Of a DNA stretch of 32,000 bases, positions 6,406-29,424 are shown piece by piece (position 1 is the first letter of the stretch; each line of letters begins with the position of its first letter). This DNA is from Candidatus Hadarchaeales archaeon (lineage in GTDB: Archaea; Hadarchaeota; Hadarchaeia; Hadarchaeales; Hadarchaeaceae): contig JAWBCC010000001.1 of the NCBI GenBank assembly GCA_038823825.1, positions 300,001 to 332,000 of the forward strand, given 5' to 3'. The translations under genes and the position numbers were made by a program. The notes under the pieces were generated by a model. The model was not told the origin of the DNA. It saw only the letters and a program-made list of their open reading frames with translations, and searched no databases.

Positions 6406-7152
6406 ATGAAAATCCATATCGGGTGCTGTGGCTGGGCTGCAGGAAGGAAAAAATATTTCCAAACTTTCTCCACGGTAGAGCTTCAGTCCACATTCTATAA
6501 ACTTCCAAAGCCGGAAATGGCAGAGAAATTGGCCAATGAGGCTCCAAAAGACTTTATTTTCTGTTTGAAAGCTTGGCAGGCAATAACACACCCGATCACA
6601 AGTCCTACTTGGAAGCGTTCTGGAATTTCACCTGAGGAGCTCGAAAAGAGGGAATACGGTTTTCTCAGACCGACAAAAGATAACTTTGAAGCATGGAAGC
6701 TCACGATGGAGATATGCGAAAGACTTTCCGCAAGAATCTGTGTGATCCAGACTCCACCAAGTTTTGGTTTTTCAGAGGAGAACATGAAAAACATGAAGAG
6801 ATTTTTCGGTAAGGCCGAAAGAGGAAAAATCCTTCTGGCATGGGAACCACGCGGTACTTGGTCCGATCACCCCGATAAAATAAGAGAGATGTGCACGGAT
6901 CTAGATTTGATACATGTGGTGGATCCACTGCGCATGAAATCCTTACATTTCGGCTCCAAAAAGGTTGCATACTTCCGGCTTCATGGATTTGGAAAACCTT
7001 CAATCTATAATTACAAATACTCCGACGAAGAGCTTCGACGTATTCTAGAAGAAATAAAGAAAACCAACGCGAAAGAGGTTTTCTGCATGTTTAACAATGT
7101 CTACATGTTTGAAGACGCTAAGCGTTTAAAGGAAATGGTTGATAAAAAATGA
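6406..7152 (+). CDS. DUF72 (UPF0759, YecE-like) family protein
   Basis: 248 aa. The N-terminal IHIGCCGWAAGRKKYFQTFSTVELQSTFYKLP and the C-terminal AYFRLHG ... FCMFNN are the hallmark DUF72 motifs. Confidence 0.8.
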   Translation: MKIHIGCCGWAAGRKKYFQTFSTVELQSTFYKLPKPEMAEKLANEAPKDFIFCLKAWQAITHPITSPTWKRSGISPEELEKREYGFLRPTKDNFEAWKLTMEICERLSARICVIQTPPSFGFSEENMKNMKRFFGKAERGKILLAWEPRGTWSDHPDKIREMCTDLDLIHVVDPLRMKSLHFGSKKVAYFRLHGFGKPSIYNYKYSDEELRRILEEIKKTNAKEVFCMFNNVYMFEDAKRLKEMVDKK

Positions 7153-7823
7153 AACCTCGTGTTCTACAGATTCCAGGATCATTTTTCGGTTCAAATGTTT
7201 ACGTCATATTTGATGAAAAGACAGCGATAATTGACGCTGGGCTCCCGGAAGATTTTATGCGCATCTCGCGGACGATGGAGAAAAATGGTCTAAATCCGGC
7301 TGACTTGGATTTTATCATAAATACGCATTGTCATTTCGATCATACCGGCGGAGATTTCATGTTTGTTAGACTTTCCGGCTGTTTGGTTTTTGCTCACAAG
7401 AACGATAGCGATGTTATAGAAAGAGGAGACGATGTTATTTCCTGTGCAAAAATTTTCAGAAGCAAGCTTGTTCCAGTTCGCGTTGAAAAAAGACTTGTTG
7501 ACGGCGACGAAATTTGTTTGGGCAACTGGACGTTGAAGATTTTACACACTCCGGGACACACTGCCGGTAGTATATGCATTTTGTTACCAGAGGAAGGAAT
7601 TCTGTTCAGCGGAGATACAGTTTTTGCTGATGGATTTGGAAGAACGGATCTACCAACCGGAAATCCACATGATTTGGTAATGTCTCTTCGTCGCTTACTT
7701 TCAGAACCATTTAGTCTGATTTTTCCAGGCCACGGTGAAATATCCAAAGACGGAAAAGAGAGTATCAAACGGGCATTGGAGCTAGTGAGAAGATATGCAG
7801 AAACCGAGAGATATTTTGAATAA
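7149..7823 (+). CDS. MBL-fold metallo-hydrolase (glyoxalase II-like)
   Basis: 224 aa. It carries the HxHxDH motif (NTHCHFDHTGG), then HTPGHTAGS and a downstream D/H (GDTVFADGFGRTD, PGHG). Its start overlaps the DUF72 stop as ATGA. Confidence 0.88.
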   Translation: MKPRVLQIPGSFFGSNVYVIFDEKTAIIDAGLPEDFMRISRTMEKNGLNPADLDFIINTHCHFDHTGGDFMFVRLSGCLVFAHKNDSDVIERGDDVISCAKIFRSKLVPVRVEKRLVDGDEICLGNWTLKILHTPGHTAGSICILLPEEGILFSGDTVFADGFGRTDLPTGNPHDLVMSLRRLLSEPFSLIFPGHGEISKDGKESIKRALELVRRYAETERYFE

Positions 7824-8070
7824 GTTGAAGTGGCATGAAAGAAATCTGGAGAGGGCGAAAATAACTATTCTACACCGTGGAGCTGCAAATGATCAAAAGG
7901 TGATCTCCGGAGCTGAAATCATCTCTCTTTCTAGAGGCTACATGGTCGTGCAGAGCGCAGGAGGAGAATTAGAAATCCCATATCACAGAATTCTGCAGAT
8001 AGAAGTGGATGGAAAGATGATTTGGAGCAGAGAGTTTGTCAGAAAATCCAAGAAAAGTTCACGAATTTAA
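7795..8070 (+). CDS. DUF504 / UPF0248 (MJ1316-type domain) protein
   Basis: 91 aa. LNKLKWHE at the N-terminus and the IPYHRI motif near the C-terminus fit the small archaeal DUF504 family as I remember it. It overlaps the 3' end of the MBL gene by 29 nt. Confidence 0.6.
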   Translation: MQKPRDILNKLKWHERNLERAKITILHRGAANDQKVISGAEIISLSRGYMVVQSAGGELEIPYHRILQIEVDGKMIWSREFVRKSKKSSRI

Positions 8071-8129
8071 TTCATCTCAGTCCAGACTTCTTTGTGAGTA
8101 GACCTAACATTACGGATGTCATACGTGCG

Positions 8130-8393
8130 ATGTTTGCTTTAGGTTTCTCGCCAGAAGAAATATACGAGATTCTATCGATGGCCGGATTACCTTGGGAAGA
8201 CGCTCAACTTCTGATAGAGCGGCTAAAAAATGAGTCAGAGAAATTTGTCGGCCGGGAAGATAGACTGCTTAAGGCTGTTGAGGAAGTTGTAAGACAAAAC
8301 CATTCGGAGTTAATTGAGAAACTTTCGAGCATGGAGATGAAAATCGATTTTATTATCAGATCTCTGAGAAATAGAAAGGCTCGGGAGAAATGA
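8130..8393 (+). CDS. Hypothetical small alpha-helical protein
   Basis: 87 aa from the ATG at 8130; an in-frame GTG at 8094 is an alternative start. The composition looks helical or coiled-coil (EDRLLKAVEEVVRQNHSELIEKLSSMEMKIDFIIRSL). It is co-directional with the DUF72-MBL-DUF504 genes. I recognise no family. Confidence 0.5.
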   Translation: MFALGFSPEEIYEILSMAGLPWEDAQLLIERLKNESEKFVGREDRLLKAVEEVVRQNHSELIEKLSSMEMKIDFIIRSLRNRKAREK

Positions 8394-10083
8394 CTACCAC
8401 TCTAATTATGAAATTTTCCTCCTTAAATGACCAGCGGTAGCTTAGGCATGAGTGAATATAACCCAACAAGGTTTTCTGTAACAAGTTTTGATTTGGATAA
8501 TCAAAAATCTCCTCTACCCCGTCCCAGATTTTTATGACAACGCTCCACTGTCCCCACCAAATCACAACATCCAAGAATGGGAGATAAATCGGTGTTGCGG
8601 TTCGGTTGCCAATGACTCCAGATAAATCCTCACGAAAATACTCGACACTCTTTATTTTCAGATCGTGATAGACGGAAACAAACGGAGAACACTCCGATCT
8701 AGGTGGAAACGTCTTGTAAAGAGTTTCTCTGGACATCTCAGGAATATCCAATTGGGAAACGTGAAACTCAAATTCGGGCTCCGGTGAAGAGATTTTAGCA
8801 AGATCCGATAAAATTCCAGAAAGTAACTCCAAGACAGCCATGATGGAAGGCGGAGAGTTTTCATCGAAATAAATTTTAAAAATTCCTCGGATCTTCTCTC
8901 CAGCGATTTCGTGTTCGATGCGAATTTCTTTTGGTTTTACAGTTGAAAAGAGACTTCGAAGGATGTTTTCTGCTTCTTTAGTTTCACGCTGGTTTAACAT
9001 TCGTTGAGCGGTTTTTATTTCAGCGATTATTTTTGAAATTCCAATTTCCAGCTGTTCGGCTATTGATGGAGCATCGTTTTCTGGCCGCTTGCACATTCCT
9101 TGAATGATTCTGCTGCTTATCTTTCCAGGCTCTCTATGGCTTAAAACATTTTGCAGAAGTTTTATGGCATTCTCGAGATCTTTCTCTACAAGCTCCAGAA
9201 GGTTCAGCTCTCCATCGATCGTCTTTTCCACCTTCTGATGCGACGAATACAGAATCTCATAAATTTGCAGAAAAGCTGATTTTAACTCTCTTAAACTATT
9301 GATTTCGGAAGAGATAAGCTCTATTTTTTCGGTAAAAAAATCAAGTTCGGAAATATCTAGCCAATCGGCAGATCTAAATATCTCCTCTTCAGCTTTGCAC
9401 CATGCGTACCGGAAGAGCACCTCATCAGAACTTCGGTCCAAGTGTACGATTCCGTTTATCAACGCCTCGCTCCATGCTCTGAAATAAAGCATTTTTTCCA
9501 AAGTTTCAATGACTTTTGCTTGGTGTTCTCTGATAAAGTTGTCCATAAGATTCTCCAACAGGAAAAATCTCACTTTTATCGGAGTTTCAATTTTCCAGAT
9601 TTTTTTGCTGGCAATGATTGTGCCTTCTGGATTTTTTATCTCAACTAACAAACCAAGTGGAAAATATGCCCGCGCAATAATGAAATCTCCGGTACTTGAG
9701 AACCTCACAACTGGAGCAGAGATAAACAGGTTTATTTTCTCACCACTGTTTTGGAATGAGTCAATAACTGCTTGCAAATGTTGCGCGAAATATCCAGATG
9801 CGATAATCCCGGCTACTTCTTCAACGTTAGGATGGTATTGTTCAGCTCTTTGTGAAGCCTCGATCAAAGCTCGCTCAGCGGACCAGCGGAGTATATCCTT
9901 CATCGATGAGCAAAGAAAAGAAATTCTCCAGTCCAAATCATCGAATTCTTTTTGCATCATTGTTTGCATTTTTCTTTCATGATTTCTCCAGAGCAGATAT
10001 GCGGCAAGATTGGAGCTTAGAATCAAAAGAATTACACCAGTGGCAGTTAAGGGAAGAAACCCTCGAACGCTCACCTTTAGCAA
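8356..10083 (-). CDS. Large hypothetical protein with prepilin-like N-terminus (last gene of six-gene operon)
   Basis: 575 aa. The N-terminus MLKVSVRG/FLPLTATGVILLILSSNLAAYLL has a basic residue plus Gly followed by a hydrophobic helix. The rest is soluble, with a long helical, heptad-like middle (residues about 250-400) and an aromatic-rich C-terminal domain. It overlaps the upstream gene by 7 nt. No recognisable domain. Confidence 0.8.
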   Translation of the reverse strand: MLKVSVRGFLPLTATGVILLILSSNLAAYLLWRNHERKMQTMMQKEFDDLDWRISFLCSSMKDILRWSAERALIEASQRAEQYHPNVEEVAGIIASGYFAQHLQAVIDSFQNSGEKINLFISAPVVRFSSTGDFIIARAYFPLGLLVEIKNPEGTIIASKKIWKIETPIKVRFFLLENLMDNFIREHQAKVIETLEKMLYFRAWSEALINGIVHLDRSSDEVLFRYAWCKAEEEIFRSADWLDISELDFFTEKIELISSEINSLRELKSAFLQIYEILYSSHQKVEKTIDGELNLLELVEKDLENAIKLLQNVLSHREPGKISSRIIQGMCKRPENDAPSIAEQLEIGISKIIAEIKTAQRMLNQRETKEAENILRSLFSTVKPKEIRIEHEIAGEKIRGIFKIYFDENSPPSIMAVLELLSGILSDLAKISSPEPEFEFHVSQLDIPEMSRETLYKTFPPRSECSPFVSVYHDLKIKSVEYFREDLSGVIGNRTATPIYLPFLDVVIWWGQWSVVIKIWDGVEEIFDYPNQNLLQKTLLGYIHSCLSYRWSFKEENFIIRVVVISPEPFYFSEI

Positions 10084-10580
10084 ATTTTCACCTCAACCTT
10101 TAAGCTGATCTTTCCGTCCATGGGGCAAAAAAGTGTGGCAGATACAACAGTAGCAGGCCTGTCTATATTTTCTCCGGCATGAAGAGAAAAGCCAATTTCT
10201 GTGGATGTTATGTCCAAAGCAACGAGAAATCCTCGAGTATAGAGACTTGTGATTTTTCTGTCCAACGCCATTTGTAGGTTTTCTGCTAATTTTCTTCCTA
10301 TTTCCGGCTCATGGATATAAAGGAATGCGGATTCCGTAATGATTTCTGCCCAGCTTTTACCAGAGAGATTTTTACTATATCCTTCAATCTGATAGCCAAT
10401 CTCGTCTCCGGCCGTTGAAAAAAGTAAAGAATTGAGAATGCTATGCGCGAGATCATCTATATGTCTGTCCCTAGCGTCCATAGCGTTCGCAGAAATAAGC
10501 AATGTTATTCCCGTGGAGATGAGGACGTAGAAGACAAGTAGATCTATCAGAGTGGAGTTTCCTCTTACGCTCGTTATCAT
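10077..10580 (-). CDS. Hypothetical prepilin-like protein (gene 5 of operon)
   Basis: 167 aa from the internal ATG at 10580, which forms an ATGA overlap with the upstream stop. The N-terminus is MITSVRG/NSTLIDLLVFYVLISTGITLLISANAM. The longer 199-aa ORF-track version would overlap the upstream gene by about 100 nt. Confidence 0.7.
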   Translation of the reverse strand: MITSVRGNSTLIDLLVFYVLISTGITLLISANAMDARDRHIDDLAHSILNSLLFSTAGDEIGYQIEGYSKNLSGKSWAEIITESAFLYIHEPEIGRKLAENLQMALDRKITSLYTRGFLVALDITSTEIGFSLHAGENIDRPATVVSATLFCPMDGKISLKVEVKIC

Positions 10581-10960
10581 TTTCTCCACACATAGCAACT
10601 CAAGACGGAATCCTGCGGAAAATCCTGCTTTGGCCACGCACAAAATAGCACGATCTTTGAGTAATTTCTCGGACACCCTTCACCGAGAGAAAAAAGAATT
10701 TCGCCCCGCGAATCAACGATTTCCATTTTTATTTCCATTCCAGAATGTTCAAAAAACTCCTTCTGATTTTTCAACCACTCTATTGATTCTTCAGTACTAT
10801 ACATGCTTAGAGTAACAAAACCCCTGGATAAGTCCAACGCAACTTCTAATTCGCTCTTTCTTTCGGAAGCTTTCATAGCGTTCGAACAAACAAGCATGAA
10901 AATCGTAAAACCAGCCACGGCGAAACCGGCCGCAAGGAGATCAGTCGGAGTCGAAAGCAT
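10577..10960 (-). CDS. Hypothetical N-terminally anchored protein (gene 4 of operon), paralogue of gene 5
   Basis: 127 aa from the ATG at 10960. The N-terminus is MLSTPTDLLAAGFAVAGFTIFMLVCSNAM. It shares the DLL...SNAM/ANAM and C-terminal LFC motifs with the next gene. The 173-aa ORF-track version runs deep into the upstream gene. Confidence 0.65.
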   Translation of the reverse strand: MLSTPTDLLAAGFAVAGFTIFMLVCSNAMKASERKSELEVALDLSRGFVTLSMYSTEESIEWLKNQKEFFEHSGMEIKMEIVDSRGEILFSLGEGCPRNYSKIVLFCAWPKQDFPQDSVLSCYVWRK

Positions 10961-11375
10961 ACGCGGTCTCCAGCAAGATGCTATAATTTCTCTTTTCAAG
11001 AACAACAAAAGCAGGATTTTTTGCCACAATTTCAAAAAGTCCATTGTTAATGATGCATTGTATTTGAAGAAATCTCCTATATTCCGGATGCTCTGCATCC
11101 TCTACTACTAAGAGTTGTCCATAGGGAGAGCTCTCTCCATAGAACACAAAGGTGGCAGGTTGTCTGTCGAGGAATGATAGCCGAACCTTATAATCCCATG
11201 GCGAAACTGCTACTCTTTGCACGGTATTTGTTATCAATTCAGCGTTAAGCATCATCTGTTCGGATTTCGCTTTTTTGTCAATGCTCCCGATAAACAGAAT
11301 TGCTAAGCAAAACATCGCGGAAGAAAAAACTCCTAATGCAAGCTTGCTCGTAAAAAAGTCGACTAGTGTTTCCAT
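10941..11375 (-). CDS. Hypothetical N-terminally anchored protein (gene 3 of operon)
   Basis: 144 aa. The N-terminus METLVDFFTSKLALGVFSSAMFCLAILFIGS contains a hydrophobic helix, and the remainder looks beta-rich. It overlaps the upstream gene by 13 nt. Confidence 0.7.
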   Translation of the reverse strand: METLVDFFTSKLALGVFSSAMFCLAILFIGSIDKKAKSEQMMLNAELITNTVQRVAVSPWDYKVRLSFLDRQPATFVFYGESSPYGQLLVVEDAEHPEYRRFLQIQCIINNGLFEIVAKNPAFVVLEKRNYSILLETAYAFDSD

Positions 11376-11737
11376 TCTTTAACCTCCAGTCTTGAGTTAT
11401 CGTCTACAGACAAAAGATAGTCTCCGTATACGAGCGTGATACTGGAGGCGGTTACCGGCAACATGCTTGAGCGAACTATCTCTTCATCTAGCCAGGCCTC
11501 AATTAATCTGTCACGTAGAATGATTTTTCCGCTACTTCTTATTTGAACTACTCTTTCCCCTCCATTCGAGATTTCATGGATGGTTTCTCGGATTCTGTAA
11601 AAATCTTCAATCAATTTTTGTTTTTCCAGATTTCGCTGCAAGATTCTTAGTCCGGATATTCCGATTAACACAGTGCCACATGCAAGCACGACGGACAGAA
11701 GCAACACAACTGGCAAAGAAGAGAAACCCCTATTCAT
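11363..11737 (-). CDS. Hypothetical prepilin-like protein (gene 2 of operon)
   Basis: 124 aa from the ATG at 11737, which forms a TAATG overlap with the upstream stop. The N-terminus is MNRG/FSSLPVVLLLSVVLACGTVLIGISG. Confidence 0.7.
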   Translation of the reverse strand: MNRGFSSLPVVLLLSVVLACGTVLIGISGLRILQRNLEKQKLIEDFYRIRETIHEISNGGERVVQIRSSGKIILRDRLIEAWLDEEIVRSSMLPVTASSITLVYGDYLLSVDDNSRLEVKEWKH

Positions 11738-12114
11738 TATCTCACGGCGATCTGACCTTCCCAAGGTAGATAATTTGGTGCTGTGACTCTAACGGTGGCT
11801 ATAACCCCGCTTGGAACTATAAAACTAGCTGAATTTCCGCTTGGTGTTATCGCATCTCTCCCAGCTGGGTAACTGATCTCTATTGTTGGGCTGTTCAGAG
11901 GCACCCCGCTGGACGCATCGTATACTTCGACCAAAACCTTCTTTTTGCTAGAAGAATAGTCTTGTACTCTCAGGTTCACTCGCATGTCCGAGATAATGGA
12001 TCTTTGTGCAGTTCCGATAAATCGCGAAAGAACCCCTAGACAGAGCATGCCGACAACAAGTGCCATCACAAGTTTGATGGGAAGATCCATCATTTGACCA
12101 CGATTATTCATCAT
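11737..12114 (-). CDS. Hypothetical prepilin-like protein (gene 1 of operon)
   Basis: 125 aa. The N-terminus is MMNNRG/QMMDLPIKLVMALVVGMLCLGVL, followed by a beta-rich Ser/Val domain of about 90 aa. A TATA box lies about 27-30 nt upstream. Confidence 0.75.
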   Translation of the reverse strand: MMNNRGQMMDLPIKLVMALVVGMLCLGVLSRFIGTAQRSIISDMRVNLRVQDYSSSKKKVLVEVYDASSGVPLNSPTIEISYPAGRDAITPSGNSASFIVPSGVIATVRVTAPNYLPWEGQIAVR

Positions 12115-12137: not shown

Positions 12138-12148
12138 ATTTAAATATA
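12138..12148. promoter_or_regulatory. Shared palindromic TATA box (ATTTAAATATA) for divergent leaderless transcripts
   Basis: This is the only AT-rich element in the 56-nt spacer between the minus-strand ATG at 12114 and the plus-strand ATG at 12171. It is centred about 27-30 nt from both, and ATTTAAAT is its own reverse complement. Confidence 0.5.
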
Positions 12149-12170
12149 CGTTTACAGATGTGTGTTTTTG

Positions 12171-12734
12171 ATGGTCCGTCTCTTCATAGCGGTCAACTTG
12201 CCAGAAGATCTGCGCGAGAAGCTCGCTTCTATTCAGAAGGAGTTTCCAAAAGTCTCTCTGAAATTTGTTGAACCAGAGAATCTTCATCTAACGCTAAAAT
12301 TCTTAGGCGAAACCCCTACAGGAAAGATCGAAGACATAAAAAAAGCAATTTCTATCGCTGTTCAGCACAGTTATTCATTTGAACTGGAAGTCGCAGGTCT
12401 AGGCGCCTTCCCAGATTTGCGGAGGAGTAGAGTGATTTGGGCAGGAGTAAGAAAAGGAAACCAAGATGTCATCAATCTTCAACGGAGCATAGATAGGACA
12501 CTTGCTGAGCATGGTTTCCCGCTAGAGAAAGACTTTCATCCCCATGTAACTTTAGCTCGCGTAAAGTCAGCAGTAGATGCTCGTCAAATAGTTGAATTTA
12601 TACGCGAAGTCGGCTCTCGAGTGTTCGGTTCTTTCTGTGTGAAAGAAGTAGACCTCATGCAGAGTACGCTAACCCCTCGAGGACCCATCTATACGAAGAT
12701 TTTCTCGGCTCAACTTTTAGACCGAAAAGAATAA
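12171..12734 (+). CDS. thpR: RNA 2',3'-cyclic phosphodiesterase (2H phosphoesterase, ThpR/LigT)
   Basis: It has two HxTx motifs (HLTLKFLG and HVTLARV), begins MVRLFIAVNLP, and is about 187 aa. The ORF-track start at 12162 is GTG; the ATG at 12171 is preferred. Confidence 0.9.
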   Translation: MVRLFIAVNLPEDLREKLASIQKEFPKVSLKFVEPENLHLTLKFLGETPTGKIEDIKKAISIAVQHSYSFELEVAGLGAFPDLRRSRVIWAGVRKGNQDVINLQRSIDRTLAEHGFPLEKDFHPHVTLARVKSAVDARQIVEFIREVGSRVFGSFCVKEVDLMQSTLTPRGPIYTKIFSAQLLDRKE

Positions 12735-12825: not shown

Positions 12826-12883
12826 CAATTGTTTGCGTAATCATTCCTAAAAAGGATGAGATTATCACTATTTTGTGAAGGAT

Positions 12884-13642
12884 ATGCTAGCAAAGCGCAT
12901 AATACCATGCTTAGATGTAAATAAAGGAAGGGTTGTCAAAGGCATTAAATTTCAAAATCTAAGAGAAGCTGGCGATCCTGCAGAGTTGGCAAAGTTTTAT
13001 GAAGAGCAAGGTGCAGACGAAATAGTTTTTCTAGATATAGGAGCCTCGCCAGAAGGAAGAGAAGCGATGTTCGATGTTGTAAGACGTACCGCAGAAACTT
13101 TGTTTGTTCCTTTAACAGTTGGTGGTGGGATGAGATCCATAAACGACATAGAGCGAATGCTGAAGAGCGGGGCCGATAAAGTAGCTATAAATACGGCCGC
13201 GGTCGAGAATCCCCAGCTCGTGAAGCTAGCATCAGAGAAATTCGGCAGCCAGTGTATTGTCATCGCGATTGATGCGAAGTCGGTGGGGAAGGATAAATGG
13301 GAGGTTTATACATACGGAGGAAGAAAGCCTACAGGTCTCGACGCGATTGAATGGGCAAGAAAGGTTGAAAAACTTGGAGCCGGAGAAATCCTCCTAACGA
13401 GTATGGATGCAGACGGCACTCAACAGGGATATGATATTCCCCTTACGAAAGCCGTGTGTGAAGCCGTGAATATTCCGGTTATTGCATCTGGTGGAGCTGG
13501 AACTCTCGAGCACATTTATGAAGTTTTTGTCAAGACTTCCGCGGATGCGGCTCTCGCAGCCAGCATTTTTCATTTTGGTAAGTATACAGTCGGAGATGTA
13601 AAACGCTATTTGATGGAAAGAGGAATACCAGTGAGGAGCTGA
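12884..13642 (+). CDS. hisF: Imidazole glycerol phosphate synthase, cyclase subunit
   Basis: Motifs [53 protein letters not shown] and ALAASIFHF match HisF. The ATG at 12884 is preferred over the GTG at 12875. Confidence 0.95.
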
Positions 13643-13644
13643 AG

Positions 13645-14241
13645 ATGGTTAAAATTTCCATCGTCGATTATGGAGTGGGAAATCTGCACAGTATAAGAAA
13701 AGCTATTGAATTCTCGGGAGCAAAAGTTTTGGTCACAAAAGATCCAAAAATTTTGAGAGGCTGCGATGCAATAGTTTTGCCCGGGGTGGGGGCTTTTAGT
13801 GGGGCAATGAGCGAAATGCCAAAAGAAATCGTCATTGAAGAAGCGCTCTCGGGGAAGCCGATTTTCGGAATTTGTCTTGGAATGCAACTTCTCTTTGAGT
13901 ATAACGAAGAGGGAAATGGAAATGGTCTCTGTCTTGTGAAGGGGAGAGTTGTGAGATTACCCAATACGGTGAAGATACCACACATAGGATGGAACATAGT
14001 TGAGATAGTGAAAAATCATCCGATCGTCAAAGAAATTCCGGCACAAGTTTACATGTATTTTGTGCATTCTTATTATGTTCAAGCGAAGGACAAGGAGATC
14101 TCGCTCGCGAATAGCAAATATGGTGTGGAGTTTCCTTCCATAATCGCATCAGAAAACATTTTCGGCACTCAGTTCCATCCAGAGAAAAGCGGCGTGCATG
14201 GTCTCAAAATCATAAAGAATTTCGTAAGTCTTTTAAAGTGA
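13645..14241 (+). CDS. hisH: Imidazole glycerol phosphate synthase, glutamine amidotransferase subunit
   Basis: It shows the class I GATase triad context (GICLGMQ, FVHSYY, FGTQFHPEKS). The start is 2 nt after the hisF stop, with a GAGGAG SD. Confidence 0.93.
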   Translation: MVKISIVDYGVGNLHSIRKAIEFSGAKVLVTKDPKILRGCDAIVLPGVGAFSGAMSEMPKEIVIEEALSGKPIFGICLGMQLLFEYNEEGNGNGLCLVKGRVVRLPNTVKIPHIGWNIVEIVKNHPIVKEIPAQVYMYFVHSYYVQAKDKEISLANSKYGVEFPSIIASENIFGTQFHPEKSGVHGLKIIKNFVSLLK

Positions 14242-14272: not shown

Positions 14273-14611
14273 GTGGAAGTAAAAGTTATTGGCCCCATTG
14301 CTTGGTACATTGGCTTACTAATAGCAATAGCTGCAGCTTTCATCGAACCAAGCGGAATTCTTTACCTAGCTCTGGCTATTATCGGTGTGGTCGTAGGTTT
14401 GCTCAACATAACAGCGAAGGAAACAACACCATTTTTGCTTGCTTCGACCGCTTTCATAGTCGCCGCATATACAATGCGTATGCTGGTCGGTGCACAGATT
14501 TCTCTCAGCGAAAATATCATCAGGCTGGCTACAAACTTAGTCGTTCTGATTGGGTCTGGGGCAATGTTAATTGCCCTTAAAGCGATTTACGACATGGCTA
14601 AGGGCGAGTAA
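14273..14611 (+). CDS. Hypothetical small integral membrane protein (about 4 TM)
   Basis: 112 aa and strongly hydrophobic. A GTG start is preceded by a GGAGGTGA SD 5 nt upstream. It lies immediately downstream of hisH. I recognise no family. Confidence 0.6.
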   Translation: MEVKVIGPIAWYIGLLIAIAAAFIEPSGILYLALAIIGVVVGLLNITAKETTPFLLASTAFIVAAYTMRMLVGAQISLSENIIRLATNLVVLIGSGAMLIALKAIYDMAKGE

Positions 14612-14663: not shown

Positions 14664-15530
14664 ATGAAAATATCGATGAGGATGATACCACGCATTGAAA
14701 AGAAAGCGAGCAGATTGCATCTCAAGTTGGAAGAACTAGCTGGAATGATCGATCACACACTCCTTCAGCCATATGAGGGAAGAAAAGCAATTGAGAGGCT
14801 TTGCGAGGAGGCTTCTAAATACCGGTTTAGGTGCGTATGCGTTCATCCTTACTGGCTTAAACTCTCTCGCGTAAAATTGGCCGGAACTGGTGTAGGCCTG
14901 GCAACTGTAGTCGGTTTCCCGCACGGTTTGGAGGGGGTAGAAGCCAAGGTGGAAGAAACGAGACTTGCGATCAAAGCCGGTGCCGATGAAATCGACATGG
15001 TGATGAACATCGCTGCCTTTCTAGATGGAATGTATACGGAAGTAGAACGAGAAATCGAAGGAGTCGTTAAAGCAGCCGACGGAAAAGTAGTCAAGGTAAT
15101 ACTTGAAGCAGGTTTTCTCACATACGAGCAAGTAATAAAAGCCTGCAAAATCGTGAAGAGTGCTGGCGCGGATTTCGTTAAGACATCAACTGGTTTCGGT
15201 CCGATGGGAGCAACTGTACTTCACGTTTTCCTTATGCGAAAAGCCGTAGGCAGAGATTTTGGAGTAAAGGCTTCTGGAGGCATAAGGAACTTCAGAGATG
15301 CTTTAAGAATGATTGCGGCGGGGGCGAATAGAATAGGCACGAGTGCAGGGGTGGCGATTATCGAGGGATACAAAAAGGAAAAGAACTTGGCCTGGATACC
15401 GGAAATTCCCTGCAATCTCTGTCCAAGTGGAAAGTTGGATCCAAAAATACCACCCACACTTTACCAGTATTATTCAGAAAAATGTATAGATTGTCCATTC
15501 AGGAAATATAGATTAAAATCCAAAGGTTAG
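14664..15530 (+). CDS. deoC: Deoxyribose-phosphate aldolase with C-terminal 4-Cys extension
   Basis: Motifs MIDHTLLQP, VCVHPYW, VVGFPHG, DEIDMVMNI, KVILE and the Schiff-base lysine context DFVKTSTGF, plus KASGGIR, match DeoC. The start could be M1, M5 or M7. The last 50 aa carry CNLC...CIDC. Confidence 0.88.
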   Translation: MKISMRMIPRIEKKASRLHLKLEELAGMIDHTLLQPYEGRKAIERLCEEASKYRFRCVCVHPYWLKLSRVKLAGTGVGLATVVGFPHGLEGVEAKVEETRLAIKAGADEIDMVMNIAAFLDGMYTEVEREIEGVVKAADGKVVKVILEAGFLTYEQVIKACKIVKSAGADFVKTSTGFGPMGATVLHVFLMRKAVGRDFGVKASGGIRNFRDALRMIAAGANRIGTSAGVAIIEGYKKEKNLAWIPEIPCNLCPSGKLDPKIPPTLYQYYSEKCIDCPFRKYRLKSKG

Positions 15531-27958: not shown

Positions 27959-28360
27959 ATGAAACTTTCGGAGAAACGGGCGAACGATGTTATCAAAAGG
28001 CTCAAATTCAGAAACGGATTAGTTTTAGCTGTTGTCTGCGATTCAAAGACAAAGGAAATTTTGATGGTTGGGTATCAAAATCGCGAAGCGGTTAAGCGTT
28101 CTTTTACAGAAGGTAGAATGTACTTCTGGAGCAGAGAGAGAAGAAAACTTTGGCTGAAAGGTGAGACATCAGGACATTTCCAATACATAGAGCGAATAAG
28201 AATTGACTGTGATGGAGATGCAATTTTATATTACGTGAAACAAGTGGGGGGAGCTTGCCACGAAGGTTACAAGAGCTGCTTTTATCGTGAATTAACACGA
28301 GAAGGCATCAAAGTAGTGGAGAAAAAGATCTTCGATCCAGAAAAAGTTTACAGGTCCTAG
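27959..28360 (+). CDS. hisI: Phosphoribosyl-AMP cyclohydrolase
   Basis: Motifs WSRERRKLWLKGETSGHFQ, IDCDGDAILY and GGACHEGYKSCFYR match HisI. The ATG at 27959 follows an in-frame GTG at 27956. Confidence 0.92.
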   Translation: MKLSEKRANDVIKRLKFRNGLVLAVVCDSKTKEILMVGYQNREAVKRSFTEGRMYFWSRERRKLWLKGETSGHFQYIERIRIDCDGDAILYYVKQVGGACHEGYKSCFYRELTREGIKVVEKKIFDPEKVYRS

Positions 28361-29424
28361 GATTTTTTGAAACCAATTCCTTCAACCGAAATTCGAGCAA
28401 ATTCTCCCATCTCGCCCTTTATATCAAACCTAACACCGACAATTTTCTCCATGAGTATTATGTTAGTCATCGTATGGAGAGTTAGCTTAGCGCAGCTTAT
28501 TTCAGATCTCCCGTTAGCTATTGCCATATATGGAATAAGCTGGTCAGCCAAATGTTCATCGACACCCGCACCACTAGAAAGTTGTGCTGCAAGTTTGTTG
28601 GCAGCTTCCTCTCCAACTCTCTCGGCAGGTTTGCCTGGCTTTCCCAAAGCACTGGCTCCTAGAATGCATCCATTTTCGGTTTCGGCCCAGAGGGTTATCC
28701 CGGCTCCGGGAGCAAGGTGTGGATCCTCTTCAGGTTTGTATGTTTCTTTCTTAATTTCGATATTTGAGTATCCTGCTCTCAAAAGCTTTTTGGTCGCGGC
28801 ATGTGCCATTCTTTGTGCAACGTTTGGTGGCAGTTTGACCGAATGTGCAATTCCAAGAATTCTCTCGACCTTGCCGGGCTCTGTGAGAACAATTGATTTG
28901 AGGATCTCAATCGGTTCGATCTCGGCCTTGATTAAACCTCCGCCCACGGGATAATGTCCTCGTCTTAAGCATTCTATTTTAGCCCGGTATCCCATTTTTT
29001 CCAGAATTCTGAGAGTCACATTTTTCCAAAAATCAATCGGTGGAGCCATGGGATTGTCCGTTCCCCCCGAAATTTCTACTGTGATTGAGCCATCGGCGAA
29101 GGCGGCTGGAGGCATAATGGTTTGAAGAATCAGAGTGGTGCTTCCAGCAGTTCCTATGTCTATCCTGTAATTTCCACTTAAAATCTTACCCGGGTAAAAG
29201 TGTATCTCCGTACTCCCGATTTGCGCACCCTTGACTTCTCCACTAGTTATTTCCGCAAGAGCTTTTATCGCTTTCAAATGTTGAGGCTGCAAACCAGGTT
29301 TTGGTCTTTTTGCACGGATGTTGAAGATTCTGACAGGTTTTCCAAGCAAGGCACAAATAGCAGTAGATATCCTGACCACGGAGCCTCCGCCTTCTCCAAT
29401 AGATCCATCTATCTCGAGCATCAC
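28357..29424 (-). CDS. rtcA: RNA 3'-terminal phosphate cyclase
   Basis: 355 aa. Motifs IDGSIGEGGGSVVRISTAICALLGKPVRIFNIRAKRPKPGLQPQHL, GTAGSTTLILQT and the DEHLADQL...HT region match RtcA. Confidence 0.92.
   Translation of the reverse strand: MMLEIDGSIGEGGGSVVRISTAICALLGKPVRIFNIRAKRPKPGLQPQHLKAIKALAEITSGEVKGAQIGSTEIHFYPGKILSGNYRIDIGTAGSTTLILQTIMPPAAFADGSITVEISGGTDNPMAPPIDFWKNVTLRILEKMGYRAKIECLRRGHYPVGGGLIKAEIEPIEILKSIVLTEPGKVERILGIAHSVKLPPNVAQRMAHAATKKLLRAGYSNIEIKKETYKPEEDPHLAPGAGITLWAETENGCILGASALGKPGKPAERVGEEAANKLAAQLSSGAGVDEHLADQLIPYMAIANGRSEISCAKLTLHTMTNIILMEKIVGVRFDIKGEMGEFARISVEGIGFKKS

Follow-up and report, generated by a model that had tools for sequence, protein, structure and literature searches.

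Archaeal type IV pilus loci were catalogued by Makarova, Koonin and Albers in 2016, and their survey describes pilin sets and the ATPase/TadC pair as separable modules that are often encoded in trans (PMC4858521). It lists six successive predicted pilin genes of Archaeoglobus fulgidus, AF0751-AF0756, all belonging to FlaFind-positive arCOG families (PMC4858521, Table S4). These genes overlap by 4-37 nucleotides (nt) and are flanked by TFE-alpha and Rpl7Ae without an adjacent motor, and the orthologous set of A. profundus adjoins TadC and an ATPase (PMC4858521). Here, we describe an operon of six genes, g1 to g6, located in a 32,000-nt stretch of DNA (hereafter, the window) from a Candidatus Hadarchaeales archaeon (assembly GCA_038823825.1, contig JAWBCC010000001.1, positions 300,001 to 332,000 of the forward strand). 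We consider it probable that the operon encodes a lineage-specific type IV pilin-like set in which g1 would be a PilA-like main subunit, g2-g5 minor subunits and g6 a tip or cap, with the machinery encoded elsewhere. Hadarchaeota occur widely in the subsurface and in hot springs; their cell surface is uncharacterised and, to our knowledge, only alkane-degrading members have so far been obtained in enrichment culture.

Compared solely by operon architecture with the euryarchaeal "clade 2" (PilB4-type) sets and their families arCOG06117, arCOG04652, arCOG07777, arCOG03926 and arCOG02911, the Hadarchaeota set is similar: both comprise six overlapping genes with class III-type N-termini, with several small products and one or two large ones. 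Like the A. fulgidus set, the operon lies amid housekeeping genes and has no adjacent ATPase or TadC gene. Because the two share this architecture, the "orphan" arrangement is of a type already known. An initial annotation, made from the letters of the window, had labelled the operon an orphan, and the label is apt as far as the missing adjacent motor genes are concerned; otherwise it does not hold, since the six genes constitute a phylum-wide core cluster with a precedent in A. fulgidus.

Organization of the operon

The six genes lie on the minus strand and are chained through overlaps of their stop and start codons, preceded by a putative promoter element:

11737-12114, minus strand: g1, 125 amino acids (aa)
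11363-11737, minus strand: g2, 124 aa
10941-11375, minus strand: g3, 144 aa
10577-10960, minus strand: g4, 127 aa
10077-10580, minus strand: g5, 167 aa
8356-10083, minus strand: g6, 575 aa, TTG start
11735-11739, minus strand: g1/g2 junction, TAATG, overlap of 1 nt
11363-11375, minus strand: g2/g3 junction, overlap of 13 nt
10941-10960, minus strand: g3/g4 junction, overlap of 20 nt
10577-10580, minus strand: g4/g5 junction, ATGA, overlap of 4 nt
10077-10083, minus strand: g5/g6 junction, overlap of 7 nt
12138-12148, minus strand: TATA-box-like element TATATTTAAAT, ~30 nt upstream of the g1 ATG, read from the sequence

The chain of six minus-strand genes at 8356-12114 had already been proposed in the initial annotation, and all five of its overlaps were found again at the same coordinates. 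Essentially the same six genes are present in three of three independent gene-calling records, two of which use alternative starts for g2 and/or g5. Shine-Dalgarno-like motifs (GGAG/GGAGGT/GAGGTGA) are found 5' of the starts of g2-g6, with a strong GGAGGT before g3 and only a partial 4-nt GTGA before g2; g1 is the sole gene of the six without such a motif. The TATA-like element sits in the 47-nt divergent intergenic region between g1 and a LigT-like gene, and a cTTTATAAA-type element ~30-40 nt upstream of g1 was also observed in 12 other Hadarchaeota loci. All-against-all comparisons (BLAST, phmmer and hhalign) detected no paralogy among the six families beyond the transmembrane helix, indicating that the six proteins are not duplicates of one pilin.

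A conserved class III-like N-terminal layout

We found that each of the six products carries one hydrophobic segment, defined as a Kyte-Doolittle mean >1.6 across 19 residues, which starts at residue 2-9 each time and leaves a leader of 3-8 residues before the helix. Since just one of the 34 other window genes shares this layout, its occurrence in six consecutive genes is far beyond chance. The hydropathy of all six products thus bears out the short leader and hydrophobic helix noted at the outset for every one of them. The four Arg-Gly N-termini reported at that stage (g1, g2, g5 and g6) are likewise correct, g3 and g4 being without Arg-Gly in the window genome.

With the putative cleavage site marked by an arrow, the N-termini of the window proteins read MMNNRG↓QMMDLPIKLVMALVVG... 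for g1, with an immunoglobulin (Ig)-like beta-sandwich behind the helix, MNRG↓FSSLPVVLLL for g2, MITSVRG↓NSTLIDLLVF for g5 and MLKVSVRG↓FLPLTATG for g6. The window copy of g3 starts METLVDFF and lacks the leader Gly, and its reading frame cannot be extended upstream owing to a stop codon directly 5'. The family consensus sequences around the putative site are as follows:

g1: M..(R/K)(G/A)↓(Q/E)L.G.PIKLVMAL
g2: ..(R/K)G↓VESLPVV
g3: ND(R/Q)G↓LLADF
g4: SVG↓EDLF
g5: E(R/Q)G↓FGYI.DMLVF
g6: (R/E/K).G↓F.P.S..G

Position -1 before the helix is Gly, rarely Ala, and is nearly invariant phylum-wide in the g1, g2, g3, g5 and g6 families: G8 of g6 is kept in >90% of 35 sequences, and G7 of g5 is nearly invariant, as is Asp at +6 in the same family. 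Position -2 is mostly Arg or Lys, with Glu, Asp, Asn or Gln also occurring. Acidic residues are conserved at +2 to +6 in the g2-g5 families, and Lys/Arg at +8 is invariant in the g1 family. The g4 product is the least prepilin-like of the six and its family is without a basic residue at -2. A class III leader is therefore recognised in g1, g2, g5 and g6 of the window and, across the phylum, in the g1, g2, g3, g5 and g6 families. The conserved Gly/Ala at -1 fits a class III signal, whereas a plain signal anchor needs no such residue, and its near invariance in five of the six families agrees with the class III (prepilin) layout suggested by the initial annotation.

We also considered whether these proteins might be EppA substrates of the DUF361/Class_III_signal type (PF04021) and rejected this assignment, as the QxSxExxxL motif from +1 is not present. 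From +1, g1 reads Q-L-M-G-V-P-I-K-L, with Gln/Glu at +1, no Ser at +3 and no Glu at +5, and neither g1 nor its family gave a PF04021 match.

Phylum-wide conservation of the gene order

The same five small genes precede g6, in the same order, in every Hadarchaeota locus long enough to judge (our loci L005-L009, L012-L015, L017, L019, L022, L026 and L027; the L019 contig is GC-rich, and g1 and g5 were not resolved there). This six-gene order is kept down to ~23% g6 identity and recurs in ~14 divergent Hadarchaeota lineages, which answers positively the question of conserved synteny in relatives that had been raised as a test of the operon. The flanks vary between lineages and are always housekeeping genes. 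The conserved order and the housekeeping flanks across the phylum indicate a vertically inherited core cluster of Hadarchaeota and no mobile or sporadic island.

The first gene product resembles haloarchaeal PilA

The g1 protein is the best conserved of the six, with 45-58% identity across the phylum. Its AlphaFold2 model, built on a shallow 6-sequence alignment, has a mean predicted local distance difference test score (pLDDT) of 81 and predicts a helix at residues 11-36 followed by a seven-strand Ig-like sandwich with pLDDT >90. Among the top matches of this model in a Foldseek search of the PDB were archaellins (9eq7 and 5z1l), FlaG (5tuh) and FlaF/G (6pbk) with marginal E-values of 2e-3 to 3e-2; the archaellin matches (Halobacterium and Methanococcus) span both the helix and the sandwich, and generic fibronectin type III/Ig domains were also among the matches. 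The CarboxypepD_reg Ig-like domain is matched by seven g1 orthologues.

Profile comparison with hhalign aligned g1 to Haloferax volcanii PilA5 over 76 columns (probability 50%, E 1.7e-4), and the alignment extends past the transmembrane helix. The equally hydrophobic profiles of g2-g6, used as controls, gave E-values of 0.04-0.9 against PilA5; being far weaker, they indicate that the likeness of g1 is not merely a matter of helix composition. The solved haloarchaeal pilin 8fj5 also aligns collinearly with the g1 profile, from the helix into the first strands, though weakly (E 0.24), and the PDB pilin 6w8x gave a weak collinear match (E 6.3). Model and profiles together support an archaeal pilin/archaellin-like fold for g1 with a specific profile similarity to PilA, and g1 is a candidate for the major pilin of the set.

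The large protein g6

The AlphaFold2 model of g6, built on a 35-sequence alignment, is confident (pLDDT 87.7, predicted template modelling score 0.75). From the N-terminus, it comprises a 67-residue helix (residues 12-78), a second helix, a four-strand sheet, a variable helical bundle and a C-terminal beta domain (residues 445-575), the last being highly conserved. We infer from the model that the N-terminal helix and sheet are pilin-like; an N-terminal helix joined to a beta-rich domain is thus predicted for both g1 and g6.

We scanned 1.84 billion representative proteins exhaustively with HMMER, and the relatives of g6 fell into 60 clusters at 50% identity. Full-length relatives are mostly 550-760 aa, a length range that results from the variable helical-bundle insert, and conservation is highest in the C-terminal 125 residues. 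All named relatives, as well as eight of eight matches in species-representative genomes, are from Hadesarchaea/Hadarchaeota, and the window protein shares 99% identity with a "hypothetical protein" from the Candidatus Hadarchaeales metagenome-assembled genome GCA_038843305.1. A word-indexed homologue search returned only near-identical relatives of g6 and g1, and rerunning it with the 35-sequence profile added none. The g6 family has no Pfam model. Foldseek searches of the PDB and BFVD with the g6 model gave no significant match, only generic helical bundles, and a profile search of the PDB returned only generic coiled-coil matches.

In two loci the g6 orthologue is split into two open reading frames (ORFs), namely L017 at 10001-12032 (419 and 268 aa) and L027 at 9983-11794 (232 and 351 aa); a real gene split, a pseudogene or faulty assembly could account for this.

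The small proteins g2 to g5

No relatives of g2 were detected in Pfam or the PDB, profile searches of the PDB with g2-g5 gave nothing meaningful, and for g2 and g3 no relatives outside the phylum were detectable. Two of the small families, encoded by adjacent genes, touch consecutively numbered Pfam families of unknown function. The g5 orthologue of L007 matches DUF7284 with 32 bits, above the gathering score of 27, over the first 126 of 278 profile positions only; three further g5 orthologues reach 16-20 bits, below the threshold. The g4 orthologue of L012 matches DUF7285 with E 0.0015 and 19.6 bits (cut-off 27) at positions 25-112 of 112, in its globular part. The window copies of g4 and g5 themselves match neither family, we found nothing in the literature on the function or context of DUF7284 and DUF7285, and a tblastn search of plasmids with g5 gave no match. 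Judging by their N-termini, g2, g3 and g5 would be minor-pilin-like and g4 an N-terminally anchored protein.

Searches for known families and pilus machinery

Pfam and NCBIfam returned no match for any of the six window proteins. The impression that their mature parts belong to no recognised family thus stands, and no characterised family absorbs all six. The window genes likewise include no type IV pilus ATPase, platform protein, prepilin peptidase or archaellin, as already noted in the initial annotation and now in agreement with the Pfam annotations. These derive from a scan of 30 other window genes, five more (7149-7823, 12162-12734, 12875-13642, 13645-14241 and 14664-15530) having been annotated through the precomputed Pfam assignments of the same genes in L001. 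An archaellum accessory set or FlaF-FlaG stator was also considered and rejected, as the window and the Pfam-annotated loci contain no fla genes, FlaH/I/J included.

L005 carries a pair of neighbouring P-loop ORFs of the MinD/ParA-like type (GKGGTGKST and GKGGVGKTT) at ~8700-10700 on the plus strand, ~4-5 kb downstream of the operon. FleN/MinD ATPases are linked to archaeal type IV pili in the 2016 catalogue (PMC4858521). The two ORFs look like generic MinD-superfamily proteins, and no such pair was seen in the other loci.

A paper on cultured Hadarchaeota states that they encode no type IV pilin (PilA) (PMC11297162). This statement probably reflects annotation-based searching, which would overlook the proteins described here.

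Neighbouring genes

The other genes of the window have housekeeping functions and encode, among others, ribosomal protein L3, enzymes of histidine biosynthesis, ArgRS, DeoC, RtcA, FtsY and transporters, and GC content is even across the window. A viral or mobile origin of the operon was considered and rejected in view of this housekeeping context, the uniform GC content and the lack of any viral fold match.

The neighbourhood downstream of the operon is partly conserved and includes an MJ1316-domain gene and a metallo-beta-lactamase (MBL)-fold gene. Next to the 3' end of g6 lies a small convergent gene:

8094-8393, plus strand: g7, ~99 aa, small soluble helical protein, convergent with g6 (the ORF could start at 8022)

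The g7 gene shares 38 nt with the 3' end of g6 and has no Pfam match. Its orthologues adjoin g6 in all lineages examined (L013-L017, L019, L022 and L026) and share the motif IRSM.R.GFS.EE.YD.LTG.G.P....QLLI.R; whether g7 is part of the system is uncertain. In L014 (12250-12666, minus strand) and L015 (12244-12684, minus strand), an extra small gene with the motif WPPGG.F.SP..TLEENR.D.SGDW stands between g6 and the g7 orthologue, and is probably the source of two weak DUF7210 matches.

The MJ1316-domain (RNA cyclic-end recognition) and MBL-fold hydrolase genes lie near the 3' side of the operon in the window (7149-8070, plus strand) and in several distant Hadarchaeota (L013-L016). Genes for RNA-end processing are scattered around the cluster, comprising the MJ1316-domain gene, LigT (12162-12734) and RtcA (28357-29424). 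Between hisH and deoC, the window also encodes a protein of 112 aa (14273-14611, plus strand), for which three membrane helices are predicted and which has no Pfam match. The Hadesarchaea locus L010 has g3-g6, with odd, low-complexity-looking ORFs at 7343-8460 in place of g1 and g2; this segment may stem from an insertion, a replacement or chimeric assembly.

Discussion

Considering the signal layout, the g1 fold and the synteny together, we favour a lineage-specific set of type IV pilin-like proteins, in agreement with the coupled operon of prepilin-like anchored proteins, with a motor encoded elsewhere or absent, that was first proposed from the DNA of the window. In such a system, one promoter upstream of g1 would drive the six genes, with translation proceeding in a coupled chain, and each product would enter the membrane via its N-terminal helix. 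A prepilin peptidase encoded elsewhere would then cut the 3-8 residue leader after the conserved Gly/Ala, allowing the freed hydrophobic helices to pack into a surface filament or a short pseudopilus. The PilA-like g1, the most conserved product and that of the first gene, may be the main subunit, g2-g5 may be minor subunits of low abundance involved in priming or capping assembly, and g6, by analogy with GspK or PilY1-type components, may be a tip, cap or adhesive subunit. The ATPase and a TadC-like platform would work in trans from another locus.

Several observations weigh against this proposal. In place of K/R, position -2 frequently holds E, D, N or Q, g4 and the window copy of g3 have no Gly-ended leader, and the six window proteins carry just 0-2 N-glycosylation sequons each. 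None of the pilin models (Pilin_N, Class_III_signal and archaeal flagellin N-terminus) matched any member with E <0.1. The T2SSE-type Walker A motif (G..GSGKTT) occurs in none of the 28 loci (357 kb) at ≤10 kb from the cluster. ATPase, TadC and peptidase genes are absent from the Pfam-annotated neighbourhoods (the window, L001-L003 and L013-L017), L005-L012 and L018-L028 having been covered by the Walker A motif scan only, with no TadC or peptidase screen. For most known pilin sets, linkage to a motor exists in some genomes at least; such sets normally have a patchy distribution, and strict vertical conservation across a phylum, amid housekeeping genes, is unusual among them. Finally, structural models were made for g1 and g6 only, so that g2-g5 are without structural evidence.

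Part of this evidence would also suit a non-filamentous, membrane-anchored envelope complex with no dedicated ATPase, such as a stator, a scaffold, a FlaF/FlaG-like S-layer anchor or a fixed pseudopilus stub, in which the pilin-like N-terminal helices would serve as anchors only; we regard this as a possible, although distinctly less probable, explanation. Vertical inheritance throughout the phylum amid housekeeping genes, the lack of an ATPase motif at ≤10 kb in ~14 lineages and of TadC or peptidase genes in the Pfam-annotated loci, and the missing cleavage motif in g4 and the window g3 all favour such a complex, as do the conserved cytoplasmic partner gene g7 alongside, the fixed stoichiometry suggested by the tight coupling, and the match of the g1 fold to the monotopic beta-sandwich proteins FlaG and FlaF. 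The last two belong themselves, however, to a type IV pilus-type machine, and g1 is closer to the filament subunit PilA than any control. Moreover, the near-invariant Gly/Ala before the helix argues for recognition by a peptidase, and genuine pilin sets without an adjacent motor are already known. A related idea, which we consider unlikely, is that Hadarchaeota lack a canonical pilus ATPase and platform, and that the six proteins, perhaps with g7, build a phylum-specific envelope structure by another route; in that event, g6 may add a fold unseen in any solved structure.

We find it improbable that the six products are ordinary Sec substrates that bear class I signal peptides, or type II anchors that stay uncleaved, and undergo no pilin-like assembly. 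The blank result with the pilin models, the lack of paralogy beyond the transmembrane segment and the not always basic position -2 would be in line with this, but the leaders are only 3-8 residues long, the hydrophobic stretch comes right after a conserved Gly and no recognisable c-region lies behind it. In addition, the helix runs on into a folded domain in the g1 and g6 models, acidic residues are conserved at +2 to +6 in g2-g5, and g1 is similar to PilA. The possibility that unrelated small membrane ORFs or miscalled genes happen to stand in a row, for which only the lack of database annotation speaks, has a negligible probability: it is refuted by the recurrence of six families in the same order across the phylum, and runs counter to the confident AlphaFold2 models for two of the six and to the base rate of the N-terminal layout (1 in 34).

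The operon is therefore a phylum-wide, unannotated candidate for the main surface filament or an envelope complex of Hadarchaeota. Every member carries the label "hypothetical protein", and no family-level Pfam model exists for the g1, g2, g3 and g6 families. If it encodes a pilus, it would contribute six new pilin-like families, including a PilA-like subunit, and would bear on attachment and syntrophic contact; if these genomes hold no motor, it would point to a novel use of prepilin-like proteins. The practical benefit is modest, given that many diverse pilin sets restricted to particular archaeal lineages are already on record, yet the families are useful for annotating and studying the cell surface of an uncultivated phylum.

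Comparison with known systems

Among individual pilins, g1 can be compared with haloarchaeal PilA (Pilin_N, arCOG02416; H. volcanii PilA5 is HVO_A0632), which it resembles in size, in its helix and in its Ig-like beta domain; the stretch VIGT..LG...GTA is common to the N-terminal helices of both. Unlike PilA, g1 gives no match to Pilin_N and has an invariant Lys/Arg at +8. Its leader is 4-5 residues long compared to ~11 in PilA, and its hydrophobic helix is ~6 residues shorter. PilA genes usually stand alone, whereas g1 heads a six-gene operon. With FlaF/FlaG and the archaellins, which are among its best fold matches, g1 shares a monotopic N-terminal helix and a beta-sandwich, although the likeness to FlaF/FlaG is marginal (E 0.011-0.028) and the Ig-like fold is ubiquitous.

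The combination of four to five small pilin-like proteins and one large protein is reminiscent, by analogy, of the bacterial GspH-I-J-K and FimU-PilVWX-PilY1 tip sets. GspK has a pilin-like N-terminal helix and a sheet with a big inserted domain, a plan comparable to that predicted for g6. Unlike these bacterial sets, the Hadarchaeota proteins lack the conserved Glu at +5, come from another domain of life and have another type of leader; searches gave no sequence or fold match of the Hadarchaeota proteins to the bacterial tip sets, with E ~0.1 at best.

Against the euryarchaeal clade-2 sets, the differences lie in the large protein and in the genomic setting. The large protein of arCOG02911 is all-beta and Ig-like, while the g6 model is alpha/beta with a helical-bundle insert, and, unlike the clade-2 sets, the Hadarchaeota set is motor-adjacent in no sampled lineage and is strictly conserved phylum-wide. 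What is new here is the families themselves, a g6 without a fold match, the strict phylum-wide conservation, the convergent partner gene and the absence of motor linkage in the sampled lineages.

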